From assembly GCA_902475645.1 (NCBI GenBank), contig CABSAH010000001.1, forward strand, positions 1-37,825: DNA of 37,825 nt, written 5' to 3'. The stretch comes from an uncultured Christensenellaceae bacterium (GTDB lineage: Bacteria; Bacillota; Clostridia; Christensenellales; CAG-138). The notes beneath the pieces are model-generated. The model was not told the DNA's origin and did not search any database. It saw only the letters and a program-made list of their open reading frames with translations. A program made the position numbers and the translations under genes. This document shows positions 28,610 to 36,405 of the stretch, piece after piece (within the stretch, counting starts at the first letter, position 1; each line of letters opens with the position of its first letter).

Positions 28610-30175
28610 ATGGCTCAATCAACAGATAAAACATTAAAACAGCTTATAATCAACAAAATGCCGCGAAGCGTGTACAAAGCGAAGGACGCGGCCGGGGAGC
28701 TTGACCCCGAACAGGTGTATCTCCCCGATTCGGCATACGATGACAGCCTCGGCATAACCTCCGCTACCCCCGGTCAAATCGTAAAGGTCAAGACCGTGCA
28801 GGACGGCAAGCCGACCGAGTGGGAAGCGGTGAACGATTACCCCGCAGTGCAAACCCGCTATGGGGTGCGCTTTACCGGAAGCCCCCCGGAGGGGGAGCGC
28901 CTGTATGGTGCCGTGGGGCTAAAGGCAAACGTGGGCGTGGGCGCAGAGCTTGTCGAGAATGATTTTGACTACATCATGCCGTGGGCGGGTATGAAACGCT
29001 GTAATACAAAGCTTGTTAACGGGGAGCGCGTGCCGACATTTTACGAGGGTGAACCGGGCTTTTCAAACACGGCGGCAGACGTTTTTGTGCAAGTGCCACG
29101 CTTTTATTATTTTAGGAGCGATGATGATGCGGAGCATGTCGTTTCGATGTACCCCCTTGCGGGATACCGCCCTCCCGAAAAATTTCGCCGTGCCGATGGG
29201 ACGCTGCGAGACTATGTTTTCCTCCCCGCGTATACGTCAGCGCTGGTGGACGGCGTTCCGGTGAGCCGTAGCGGGCTTTATGCGTATATGGCGTCTTTGA
29301 ATGGCTGGATGAAGCTGCTCTCCGATATGCACGCCGCCGGAAAGCTTGATTCGGATATATGGATTGAAGGCACAAAGGACGAGGACATCGTGCGCATTTT
29401 GTGCGACATCGAATTTGCGACGCGCGACCACCAGACCAAAATGATGGGCGCTTGCCTAATGAGATATGCCGACGACACTGTAGTAGAGGGAGGTGTAAAT
29501 CAATTTACCTTATCGCCGGAAATAGCTGCAAAATATGTCATAGGTCAGGCGATTGCCATTGGCACGGCTGATAAAGGTCAGCAGATTGCAATGAACGCCA
29601 CAATTACGAGCATAGACGCCGGCGTCATTACTTTCGAGCCTTCGGACGCTGATGTGACGGTAGAAGCGGGGCATTTCGTTTCTTCAATGCCGTGGAAATC
29701 AGGAGCTTGCGACGGTGTTAAGGCTTCGTCCGGCTCACCCATTTCAAATTCAAACGGCATATATCCGTGTAAATACAGGGGCATTGAAAACCCGTGGGGC
29801 AACCAATTCCGTTGGCGCTGGGACGTTCTTGTGAATGACTATGTGCCTTCGGTCTTACTCGACCCCACGAAATATGCGGATGGTAGGCTGACAGAGGACT
29901 ATCACGCGCTTGCTTACACTATACCCACAACGGCCGGTTATGCAAAAGAAATGGGCTATGACCCAGAATTTCCGTTTGTCCGCATAACAAAAGAGCTGGG
30001 TGGCACATGGAACTCGTTTTTCGCGGATTATAATTGGGTCAACGCTGGCTTGCGGGCGCTTCTTGTCGGGGGTGGCGTGAACGGCGGTCGTGGCGCTGGG
30101 TTGCGGTACTGCAGCGTGGCTGGCGCGCCGTCTAGCGCGAACTGGAGCATCGGCGCGGCTCTTTCTCCCGCGTAA
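28610..30175 (+). CDS. Tail fibre / receptor-binding protein, the DGR target protein with a C-terminal variable region
   Basis: 521 aa. The N-terminus KQLIINKMPRSVYKAKDAAGELDPEQVYLPDS is typical of fibre anchors. The last ~40 codons are the VR copy of a VR/TR pair, with a lectin-like ...GGGVNGGRGAGLRYCSVAGAPSSANWSIGAALS end. Confidence 0.85.
   Translation: MAQSTDKTLKQLIINKMPRSVYKAKDAAGELDPEQVYLPDSAYDDSLGITSATPGQIVKVKTVQDGKPTEWEAVNDYPAVQTRYGVRFTGSPPEGERLYGAVGLKANVGVGAELVENDFDYIMPWAGMKRCNTKLVNGERVPTFYEGEPGFSNTAADVFVQVPRFYYFRSDDDAEHVVSMYPLAGYRPPEKFRRADGTLRDYVFLPAYTSALVDGVPVSRSGLYAYMASLNGWMKLLSDMHAAGKLDSDIWIEGTKDEDIVRILCDIEFATRDHQTKMMGACLMRYADDTVVEGGVNQFTLSPEIAAKYVIGQAIAIGTADKGQQIAMNATITSIDAGVITFEPSDADVTVEAGHFVSSMPWKSGACDGVKASSGSPISNSNGIYPCKYRGIENPWGNQFRWRWDVLVNDYVPSVLLDPTKYADGRLTEDYHALAYTIPTTAGYAKEMGYDPEFPFVRITKELGGTWNSFFADYNWVNAGLRALLVGGGVNGGRGAGLRYCSVAGAPSSANWSIGAALSPA
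30048..30166 (+). repeat. DGR variable repeat (VR)
   Basis: Gap-free 119-nt alignment to 30255-30373 at an offset of 207 nt. There are 16 mismatches, all opposite adenines in the other copy. Confidence 0.9.
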
Positions 30176-35079: not shown

Positions 35080-35108
35080 ATTATATACTATTCCGGAATA
35101 GATGTCAA
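35080..35108 (-). promoter_or_regulatory. Consensus promoter copy A: TTGACA-N17-TATAAT with the palindrome CTATTCCGGAATAG in the spacer
   Basis: On the minus strand, -35 is at 35108-35103 and -10 at 35085-35080. The operator-like palindrome is at 35088-35101. An AT-rich 10-bp-stem palindrome lies at 35112-35135 just upstream. Confidence 0.7.
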
Positions 35109-35136: not shown

Positions 35137-35328
35137 TTATTCCCCGCGCTGCATGGCATTGTCGATGATGCGGTTTATAAACTCGGTCATGCTCTCCCCC
35201 TTTTTTGCCGCATATTCTTTTATGAGCTGTTTTTTGCCCTGCGGCACAAATACATCGATTCTATCCATAGATGCGCGGTAAGCATCATAATATTTTTTGT
35301 TGCTTTTGTACTTGGCGTTTTTCTCCAT
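35137..35328 (-). CDS. Ribbon-helix-helix (Arc/CopG-like) DNA-binding protein
   Basis: RIDVFVPQGKKQLIKEYAAKKGESMTEFINRIIDNAM fits a beta-strand, helix, helix RHH layout. 63 aa. Confidence 0.7.
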   Translation of the reverse strand: MEKNAKYKSNKKYYDAYRASMDRIDVFVPQGKKQLIKEYAAKKGESMTEFINRIIDNAMQRGE

Positions 35329-35335
35329 CTTGTGC

Positions 35336-35365
35336 TTGACAATCCTCGCTTTCGTGTGATAGTAT
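35336..35365 (+). promoter_or_regulatory. Candidate promoter for the mini-CRISPR array (TTGACA-N18-TAGTAT with a TG extended -10)
   Basis: TTGACA at 35336-35341, TG at 35357-35358 and TAGTAT at 35360-35365. The predicted transcription start is around 35372, at the left arm of the flanking inverted repeat. Confidence 0.5.
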
Positions 35366-35384
35366 AGGTCAAGAAGTAATTCCC

Positions 35385-35474
35385 GTGTTCCCCGCGTAAG
35401 CGGGGGTGACTCTTGAGCTCATCGTAGAGGCGGTCAAAGAATACTGTGTTCCCCGCGTAAGCGGGGGTGGCCTA
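35385..35474 (+). CRISPR. Cas-less mini-CRISPR array: two type I-E-like 29-nt repeats and one 32-nt spacer
   Basis: GTGTTCCCCGCGTAAGCGGGGGTG is identical at 35385 and 35446, a 61-nt period equal to 29+32. The stem CCCCGC/GCGGGG with a 4-nt loop and a GTGA... 3' handle resembles type I-E repeats (compare E. coli GTGTTCCCCGCGCCAGCGGGGATAAACCG). The spacer is TGAGCTCATCGTAGAGGCGGTCAAAGAATACT. The 3' end of repeat 2 is degenerate. Confidence 0.7.
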
Positions 35475-35506
35475 GACTAAAGCTAATGCTCTGTCATGGC
35501 AATTTG

Positions 35507-35526
35507 GGGAATTACTTCTTTTTTTT
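35507..35526 (+). terminator. Right arm of the 14-bp inverted repeat plus a T-tract closing the mini-array transcript
   Basis: GGGAATTACTTCTT (35507-35520) is the reverse complement of AAGAAGTAATTCCC (35371-35384). It runs straight into further Ts to 35526. Confidence 0.45.
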
Positions 35527-35530
35527 GTAC

Positions 35531-36331
35531 TTAGTCCTGGTCGAACCGGAATTTCAGCCATCCCTCGGGGATGCCGTTCTCGCTTGCTTGGCTCAGTATC
35601 TCGGCCTTTAGTTCGTCGTAAGCTTCACGGCTTTCGGGAGCCTTCTTTTTGCTCTTGACCTCGGCGTATAGCTCGATGTCGTTTATCTCGACCATCATCC
35701 AGTCTACACCGTGCGTCCCGTATCGGCTTTCGCCGGATTGATATTCCACCTCATACGGCTCACAAAAATTACACACGCAGTTGCCTTCCTTGTCGTCCCA
35801 CATTTCTCGGTAGAGGTAAAAATATTTCCCACAAACAGCACATTTGCAGTAGCATGCTGCTCGGGCGTGGTCAGCATTGAAAAATATCTTGCCGTCCGCT
35901 GCCGTAATCATTCCATCTTCTTCCCCTGCGTGAATCTCTACGCCCCAAGTTTCCGCTTTCTTTATGGTTTCTTCATCGAAGCAGATAGGGTCGAATCTGG
36001 CTTTTTTCTTGAGAAATTCCGCTAATGCTACATAAAAGCAGGTGCCGAGGTCGCCGTATTCGCCGCAATAATCGCCACAATTTAACCCTAACTCTTCGCA
36101 CAAATCTTCGTACATATCATCGTCCCCGCCTTCATCGTAATTAACGATTGCGTCAAGCAGCTCTTCGGCTTCGGGATATTTTATACGTACAAAATCGTCC
36201 GCAGAAGCCTCCTCGTCGCCATACCATTCAGCTTCCAGTAGCTTATCGAGTATGTAATGCGGAATCAAACCTGCGCCGTACTTTTCGCGCGCCTTCGTGC
36301 CTTCGATTGCCCTGTAATAATAGTTCATCAT
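35531..36331 (-). CDS. Hypothetical highly acidic protein with a C-terminal Cys cluster (266 aa), cargo gene 2
   Basis: RBS AAAGGAG. D/E-rich N-terminal half (DEGGDDDMYEDLCEELG). CYCKCAVCGKYF...CVCNFCEPYE zinc-ribbon-like cluster. Driven by promoter copy B. Confidence 0.7.
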   Translation of the reverse strand: MMNYYYRAIEGTKAREKYGAGLIPHYILDKLLEAEWYGDEEASADDFVRIKYPEAEELLDAIVNYDEGGDDDMYEDLCEELGLNCGDYCGEYGDLGTCFYVALAEFLKKKARFDPICFDEETIKKAETWGVEIHAGEEDGMITAADGKIFFNADHARAACYCKCAVCGKYFYLYREMWDDKEGNCVCNFCEPYEVEYQSGESRYGTHGVDWMMVEINDIELYAEVKSKKKAPESREAYDELKAEILSQASENGIPEGWLKFRFDQD

Positions 36332-36376: not shown

Positions 36377-36405
36377 ATTATATACTATTCCGGAATAGTT
36401 GTCAA
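36377..36405 (-). promoter_or_regulatory. Consensus promoter copy B: TTGACA-N17-TATAAT with the palindrome CTATTCCGGAATAG in the spacer
   Basis: On the minus strand, -35 is at 36405-36400 and -10 at 36382-36377. The palindrome is at 36385-36398 and the AT-rich palindrome at 36409-36432. It is part of a ~108-bp direct repeat with 35031-35139. Confidence 0.7.

Follow-up and report, generated by a model that had tools for sequence, protein, structure and literature searches.

In a phage contig assembled from an uncultured Christensenellaceae bacterium, two type I-E-like repeats, of the kind that make up CRISPR arrays, are enclosed by a perfect 14-bp inverted repeat running into a T-tract; this clamp probably closes a self-contained phage small-RNA gene, the RNA of which would act as an RNA anti-CRISPR (Racr-like). 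The DNA analysed (hereafter the window; 37,825 nt, GenBank contig CABSAH010000001.1) is the entire contig C1 of a metagenome-assembled genome (MAG) of 1.84 Mb that is 83% complete and consists of 274 contigs. It is phage DNA that encodes an endolysin as well as a tail fibre, and the CRISPR-repeat look-alikes are situated on an element without cas genes.

The two arms of the clamp (AAGAAGTAATTCCC and GGGAATTACTTCTT; sequence reading and repeat finder) are complementary at 14 of 14 positions and enclose 122 nt, in which follow one another a first repeat (R1), a spacer of 32 nt (S1), a second repeat (R2), and a further segment of 32 nt, before the 3' arm runs into a T8 run. R1 and R2 constitute a direct repeat that is exact over 24 nt and has a period of 61 (repeat finder), the last 5 nt of the 29-nt repeats being unlike, such that the 8-nt handle part reads GTGACTCT in R1 and GTGGCCTA in R2. 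The inverted repeat, the interior of R1-S1(32)-R2-32 nt and the T-tract to 35526, all described in an initial annotation of the window, were reproduced at the same positions, and its placing of the transcription start on the left arm agrees with the predicted promoter, the TG-extended -10 box of which ends 19 nt upstream of R1 and sets the start at around 35371-35372, i.e., on the first bases of that arm. A fold prediction had been suggested as a check; for the RNA of 35371-35526, it shows all 14 bp of the stem paired (-67.8 kcal/mol, z = -5.7, 0/200 shuffles as good). Within the 37.8-kb window, this is the sole perfect inverted repeat of at least 12 bp with a gap of 20-200 nt; Markov simulations give an expectation of 0.017 inverted repeats of 14 bp by chance in the window, none of 2000 local shuffles reached 14 bp, and a fortuitous inverted repeat is excluded.

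A common layout is found in phage contigs with four families of arm sequences: a promoter is followed after 5-6 nt by the 5' arm, one or two type I-E repeats come after a further 1-2 nt, and another 25-32 nt lead to the 3' arm and a T-tract. Family A is that of the window (two repeats); family A' (AGAGAAGTAATTtCC / GGnAATTACTTCTCT) comprises the loci L020 and L022 with one repeat and L066 and L070 with two; family B (AGAAGCGCTTCTG / CAGAAGCGCTTCT) comprises L017 (MT835524.1, human faeces) and L019, and family C (GAGATGTTTCTC / GAGAAACATCTC) L079, L080, and L081, the members of B and C possessing a single repeat. Throughout the loci of these four families, 5-6 nt separate the -10 box from the 5' arm and 1-2 nt the helix from the TGTT of the repeat, a T-rich tail follows the 3' arm, and the orientation of the repeat relative to promoter and T-tract is the same. 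The -35 / extended -10 layout 5-6 nt before the left arm also exists in L017, L019, L020, L066, L070, and L079; in L017, the promoter TTGACT-17-TG-TACTAT precedes the one repeat, and T5 stands behind the 3' arm. The helix measures 12-14 bp across the four families, and the distance between the arms ranges from 53 to 122 bp overall (53-66 bp in single-repeat forms).

Concerning the arms themselves, at least two types of Watson-Crick pairs occur at 8 of the 14 helix positions across the four families, with one mismatch in total (helix pairs counted from the inner helix end; MAFFT sets the arm families in three different registers). In an RNAalifold prediction from four single-repeat RNAs, the clamp is the consensus closing helix, and of the 27 pairs predicted for the entire structure, 10 show compensatory changes. 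Because the arm sequences vary across families yet remain complementary, with compensatory changes at 8 positions, the sequence comparison indicates that the stem is an RNA helix under selection as a helix. The initial annotation had proposed to look for the same flanking arms in other phages, their absence being taken as a sign of a chance repeat; the layout recurs in relatives with arms that differ in sequence and are complementary, which argues against such an origin. It had also regarded the paired ends as a stem doubling as the terminator: the stem is borne out as a real, selected feature by the compensatory changes and by the T-tract in all relatives, and its role as terminator is a prediction. 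The exact spacer-length geometry of 32 nt, to which the same annotation had drawn attention, holds in the phage of the window only; in the relatives, the segment before the 3' arm measures 25, 26-30, and 28 nt (25-28 nt in single-repeat relatives).

Among closely related loci, the RNAs of L017 and L019 are identical at 82 of 84 transcribed positions, with unrelated promoter spacers and an adjacent gene that is ~90% identical. L066 and L070 possess two repeats and an inner spacer of 32 nt. L020 and L066 share identical arms and a nearly identical repeat, the segment before the 3' arm being identical at only 20 of 26 positions. The single repeat of L020 combines the loop of R1 with the handle of R2 from L066 / L070; this combination is expected from recombination between repeats, and L020 looks like a derivative of the two-repeat form.

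Exact patterns of the junction and of the 24-nt repeat found no match in IMG/VR at first, because the relatives begin with ATG and not with GTG. A covariance-model search of 150 genomes of the same family yielded only ordinary host arrays, and the repeat variant is not listed in the accessible part of the Racr catalogue (PMC10651486). A more distant solitary type I-E repeat with a GCAA loop and an ATGACC handle was seen in L027 (IMGVR_UViG_3300045988_117532); it is bracketed by a long-range helix of 9 bp plus 7 bp (AGTGCAAGC / GCTTGCACT plus AGTTGTT / AACAACT), and a separate conventional terminator follows.

Table 1. Positions of the element, its parts and further features in the window
Feature	Position	Strand	Remarks
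Promoter, predicted, sigma-70-like	35336..35365	+	TTGACA 35336-35341, 18 nt, TG-extended TAGTAT 35360-35365; 10/12 matches
5' arm of clamp AAGAAGTAATTCCC	35371..35384	+	predicted transcript 5' end at its base 1 or 2
R1, type I-E-like repeat GTGTTCCCCGCGTAAGCGGGGGTGACTCT	35385..35413	+	stem identical to that of the array repeat on MAG contig C4
S1, 32-nt spacer between two full repeats	35414..35445	+	no target found
R2, type I-E-like repeat GTGTTCCCCGCGTAAGCGGGGGTGGCCTA	35446..35474	+	sequence reading, repeat finder
Second 32-nt segment, spacer-like, between R2 and 3' arm	35475..35506	+	no target found
3' arm of clamp GGGAATTACTTCTT	35507..35520	+	sequence reading, repeat finder, fold
T8 run, uninterrupted	35519..35526	+	first two T inside 3' arm; U-tract of predicted intrinsic terminator
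Protospacer in tail-fibre gene (28610-30175)	29749..29781	+	32/33 match to leader-proximal type I-E spacer C4:538-570 (L004)
63-aa ribbon-helix-helix (RHH) gene, aca-like, directly downstream of element	35137..35328	-	weak RepB-RCR_reg / ParG Pfam hits
266-aa acidic protein, first gene of minus-strand operon reading through element in antisense	35531..36331	-	no Pfam or PHROG hit

The same MAG includes, on its contig C4, a short array of type I-E, the repeat of which is CTGTTCCCCGCGCAAGCGGGGGTGATCC. R1 agrees with this repeat at 25 of 29 positions: the stem is identical, the loop is GTAA versus GCAA, and the handle bases -4 and -3 differ. The differences of the phage repeats from the C4 repeat within the last five bases fall into the 3' half of the 8-nt 5' handle expected from cutting by Cas6e; with GTGACTCT (R1) and GTGGCCTA (R2) compared with GTGATCC(T/C) in the array, the phage repeats are thus not host-identical over their full length. 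The leader-proximal spacer of the C4 array matches the tail-fibre gene of the window (Table 1), the mismatch being located at guide position 5 or 6, depending on the spacer start chosen, and the 5' flank being AAA/T. Judging from this match, a type I-E system with a C4-type repeat has met this phage or a near relative. The open reading frames flanking the C4 array had no Pfam hit.

The repeat hairpin that Cas6e recognises is invariant across the phage copies, and the handle bases -5 to -1 vary among copies and families (ACTCT, GCCTA, GCTCA, ACACG, ACGCT, GCGCG, compared with ATCCN in the C4 array). These handle bases are predicted to pair with the following segment: for positions -5 to -2, the predicted mean pairing probability is higher in 10 phage units (median 0.77) than in 92 units from genuine arrays (median 0.32; p = 0.0014, the units not being independent). 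The single-repeat RNAs are predicted to form a three-way junction, in which the clamp and the repeat hairpin meet a third hairpin that follows immediately upon the handle. In the window, the second 32-nt segment is predicted to form an interrupted hairpin that takes in the handle bases of R2. The suggestion that the 32 nt after R2 are a second spacer, the downstream repeat of which was replaced by the clamp, could not be upheld, as the segment is predicted to pair internally and with the 5'-handle bases of the repeat and resembles structural filler more than a spacer. An invariant hairpin together with diverged, paired handles is what would be expected of a decoy offering Cas6e its hairpin without maturing into a guide, and these predicted folds point indirectly to such a function.

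According to the mechanism that we propose, transcription would begin at the first bases of the left arm, cross the two type I-E repeat hairpins and the two structured 32-nt segments, and end where the right arm pairs with the left arm ahead of the U-tract, i.e., at a long-range Rho-independent terminator. The resulting RNA would have its 5' and 3' ends both buried in one duplex and protected from exonucleases, no free 5' end being left because the helix would begin at the first transcribed base. Such terminal stems shield bacterial RNAs against 5' and 3' decay. Termination and end protection are the most likely roles of the helix as it is predicted to fold. Since a terminator acts on one strand, its antisense placement should spare transcription of the phage genes on the opposite strand, and this may account for the antisense position that the gene has in all cases relative to the neighbouring genes. 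The repeat hairpins would bind host Cas6e and so compete with host CRISPR RNAs (crRNAs) for Cas6e and Cascade, and productive surveillance complexes would form poorly with the diverged and sequestered 5'-handle bases. After cutting by Cas6e, the clamp would hold the outer pieces together: following an in-silico cut, the 5' piece (arm and repeat hairpin) and the 3' piece (handle, segment, and arm) remain paired with -10 to -20 kcal/mol.

An anti-CRISPR function is also in line with the genomic neighbourhood. The small-RNA gene is placed antisense within a minus-strand gene pair, consisting of the 266-aa gene and the RHH gene. At the equivalent place in related phages, acrIC5 (PF22147, 82 bits) is followed by an RHH gene (L071, 2092-2274 and 2335-2520; also L072-L078), and the RHH protein of the window is 67% identical (E 5e-28) to that behind acrIC5. 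Because of this pairing in related phages, the window RHH is likely an aca-type regulator, and the 266-aa acidic protein upstream of it, for which no relatives were found, is a candidate Acr. In L071, a remnant of the clamp gene adjoins the acrIC5-RHH operon directly. An anti-CRISPR role is preferred over that of a guide because of this acr-aca neighbourhood, the lack of any target found, and the diverged, paired handles.

In its antisense position (window 35329-35530, with equivalent places in L017, L019, L020, and L079), the small-RNA gene apparently overlies the 5' untranslated region (UTR) of the neighbouring gene in L020, and it is situated between two operon genes in the window. Phage mRNA would hold the exact complement of the small RNA, so that pairing between the two would be possible. 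A repeated promoter/5'-UTR module, consisting of a perfect TTGACA-17-TATAAT, a small GC hairpin, and a ribosome-binding site, is found in the window (35080-35108 and 36377-36405, minus strand) and in L017 (4725-4840, 5944-6040, 6851-6960). In the window and in L071, a palindrome (CTATTCCGGAATAG), which is predicted to be the likely RHH operator, lies between the hexamers of this module; the promoter of the small RNA is without it.

Several points weigh against an RNA anti-CRISPR. Start, stop, and processing of the RNA are predictions, as is termination at a stem of such long range; the clamp structure goes unreported in the terminator scan, because the enclosed 'loop' amounts to 122 nt. The statistic on handle sequestration was derived from predicted folds, with about six units that are independent. 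Cas1, Cas6e, Cas7e, and Cse1 were not found anywhere in the MAG including the window, which at 83% completeness and 274 contigs does not show their absence. Finally, two full repeats, the canonical 61-nt spacing, and an exact 32-nt spacer have the look of a functional mini-array, from which S1 might be released as a crRNA of normal size.

This last point leads to the alternative of a working viral mini-CRISPR array, from which host Cas6e would release the S1 crRNA and perhaps also the second segment, such that host Cascade-Cas3 would be turned on competing phages or other targets and the clamp would be merely a terminator. The canonical arrangement of the window is shared by L066 / L070, the handle GTGACTCT of R1 is one base off a natural variant (GTGACCCT) in a metagenomic array (L021), and S1 resembles a fragment of coding sequence. 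No protospacer for S1 or the second segment was found, however, in the MAG itself, among INPHARED phages, in IMG/VR (wobble positions; 20-mers), or in any of the fetched loci, these databases being incomplete; an 18-nt match in MT835480 (INPHARED) extends to just 20/32. Close relatives retain the clamp with only one repeat, from which no canonical crRNA would be possible, and the divergence and predicted pairing of the handle bases as well as the acr-aca neighbourhood equally speak against a guide. In L066 / L070, the inner spacer retains a 6-bp hairpin (TCAAGG...CCTTGA) with three of the four inter-phage differences in its loop, which is unusual for a guide. We regard a working array as unlikely and keep it under consideration because the window copy could still release one normal-sized crRNA.

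Concerning the coding-like character of S1, the in-frame reading of positions 35407-35445 (handle end and S1) is (V)TLELIVEAVKEY, and S1 would appear to be a fragment of a protein-coding gene. A guide function of S1 against dnaA, with a match of 30/34 in a genome of the same family, was considered and rejected as generic coding-like similarity. In an order-wide search, S1 matched at 21-27 of 32 positions in many unrelated genes with the peptide motif IVEAVK(E/D), and the dnaA of the MAG itself gave no match.

A viral crRNA-like regulatory RNA (Cracr), the spacer-like segments of which would pair in part with the promoter of the host cas operon or of a CRISPR-guarding toxin, so that Cascade represses host immunity genes, is improbable. 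Phages are known to carry I-E Cracr arrays that consist of two or three units and have short pseudo-spacers (bioRxiv 10.1101/2024.10.29.618823). The segments of the single-repeat relatives (25-28 nt) are shorter than a 32-nt spacer, and RNAs of this kind tolerate handle divergence. In the one genome of the family in which a complete I-E operon is present (G063, of a different genus), however, the segments all have seed matches no more often than expected by chance, and the cas3 promoter contains none of these; the first bases of the segments, i.e., the would-be seed, are predicted to lie within a hairpin, and no cas locus was found in the MAG. The array spacers of G063 had no match in the phage loci.

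Little probability is likewise attached to the idea that the clamp makes the transcript a circularly permuted crRNA. As the helix is placed 1-2 nt ahead of the repeat at one end and behind the spacer-like segment at the other, one Cas6e cut would then give both a 5' handle and a 3' hairpin end, and the pieces held by the helix would mimic a complete crRNA in the order handle, guide, and repeat hairpin with Cas6e, such that a single repeat would suffice for loading of Cascade and the two-repeat form of the window would be a 'circular' array with two guides, the second of exactly 32 nt. The exact 32 nt in the window, the fixed junction of 1-2 nt, and the predicted association of the pieces (-10 to -20 kcal/mol) suit this idea, whereas the segments of 25-30 nt in relatives, the diverged and paired handles, and the lack of targets do not.

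Traces of loss of the element bear on a role of the arms as DNA. On the minus strand of L071 (~1930-1985), the promoter TTGACT-17-TACTATAAT is followed by one copy of AGAAGCGCTTCT and a T-tract, without any repeat. As the family B arm is a palindrome, the two arms are also direct repeats, and L071 represents a clamp RNA gene that lost its body in a deletion from one arm to the other. Upstream of the 110-aa gene, where L020 / L066 possess the clamp gene, L068 and L069 contain the fragments AACAGTCGC and then TTCTCTTT; judging from these, the element was lost there through imprecise deletion.

It is very improbable that the arms act as an invertible switch, as the ends of a miniature mobile cassette, or as operator sites of the neighbouring RHH regulator, a role suggested by inverted repeats around a short segment beside a regulator gene, by the palindromic family B arm (AGAAGCGCTTCT), and by the loss of the body in L071 with one arm left: a single repeat orientation relative to promoter and T-tract in all loci, arms that are single-copy in the MAG, homology between relatives that starts at the -35 box or the RHH gene and not at the arms, losses that leave ragged remnants or a solo arm, and a distance of 53-122 bp, presumably very short for recombinase synapsis, therefore make cassette, switch, and operator pair poor explanations. 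Furthermore, no target-site duplication was found, the arms lack palindromic symmetry in families A and C, the palindrome of the RHH-linked promoters is a different one (CTATTCCGGAATAG), and the fixed site at the predicted +1 and beside the T-tract suits a role as RNA. The footprint of a mobile mini-array cassette, which the initial annotation had considered, is thereby not supported.

Phage RNAs mimicking CRISPR repeats have been described only from 2023, and how they are built for stability, abundance, and correct termination is largely unexplored. Here, a compact RNA from an anti-CRISPR neighbourhood of gut phages holds one or two repeats of type I-E within a conserved end-to-end helix. If the helix were needed for activity, it would provide a searchable signature, the succession of promoter, arm, repeat, arm, and U-tract, by which such genes could be found, a design rule for stable repeat-bearing RNAs, and a possible route from a single repeat to a two-handled RNA by one Cas6e cut; if it were only a terminator, the element would be an ordinary though well-documented case of known counter-defence.

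Bacterial small RNAs possess Rho-independent terminators and 5'-terminal stabilising stems. Similarly to the former, the 14-bp stem of the clamp is followed at once by T8, as is the case in all relatives of the four arm families, and similarly to the latter, the helix begins at the first predicted transcribed bases; the halves of the stem, however, are 53-122 nt apart around the whole RNA body, whereas the usual terminator loop comprises 3-8 nt. Invertible switches and miniature mobile elements would be expected to occur in both orientations or in many copies with target-site duplications, whereas the element has one orientation in all loci, and each arm occurs a single time in the MAG.

No description of an end-to-end helix that encloses a repeat unit and serves as terminator was found in PMC10651486, PMC11656645, bioRxiv 10.1101/2024.10.29.618823, or the further full texts searched; these cover Racrs, Cracrs, and reviews, and the initial remark that CRISPR leaders or trailers so organised are not known to have been described agrees with this. 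Among the Cracr arrays of Liu et al. (bioRxiv 10.1101/2024.10.29.618823), the I-E examples consist of two or three units, and a V-A example combines a Rho-independent terminator with a single repeat and a spacer-like part. The present element resembles them as a compact phage transcription unit of repeat-like and spacer-like parts. The described I-E Cracrs, however, end in a further repeat-like unit and not in a stem pairing with the 5' end. What defines the class is a partial match, flanked by a PAM, to the promoter of a host cas or toxin gene; no cas locus was found in the MAG, and G063 gave seed hits at chance level only.

Viral mini-CRISPR arrays reportedly take part in inter-virus conflicts (Medvedeva et al. 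2019 are said to have described them). They are reviewed in PMC11656645. Like them, the element has the canonical repeat-spacer period, with one or two spacers placed between repeats of the host type, and belongs to a virus that lacks cas genes. Here, however, no target was found, the last five repeat bases are unlike between the copies and compared with the host repeat, and a long-range stem closes the array, which in relatives shrinks to one repeat and yet keeps the stem.

Racrs are RNA anti-CRISPRs from solitary repeat units, including RacrIE1 and RacrIE2 (Camara-Wilpert et al., Nature 2023, PMC10651486). These promoter-proximal repeat mimics cluster with acr genes, and immunity is inhibited by two Racrs of type I-E; the main text of the paper (PMC10651486) nowhere uses the word 'terminator'. 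As in Racrs, a phage-borne repeat of the host type without cas genes stands directly behind a strong, here predicted, promoter, the repeat hairpin is kept, anti-CRISPR-associated genes lie beside it, and single-repeat relatives exist (L017, L020, L079). On the other hand, the repeats are enclosed here within a conserved 12-14-bp helix of the two ends of the transcript, which doubles as the predicted terminator, and the window copy is not solitary, having two repeats and a canonical 32-nt spacer, whereas L017, L019, L020, and L079 have one repeat. RacrIF1 possesses a long 5' leader that is coated by Cas7f, whereas only a paired 14-nt arm precedes the repeat here. The element thus constitutes a structural variant of the phage counter-defence RNAs already known as Racrs or viral mini-arrays; it is situated between Racrs, viral mini-arrays, and Cracr arrays, and most likely works like a Racr (PMC10651486).

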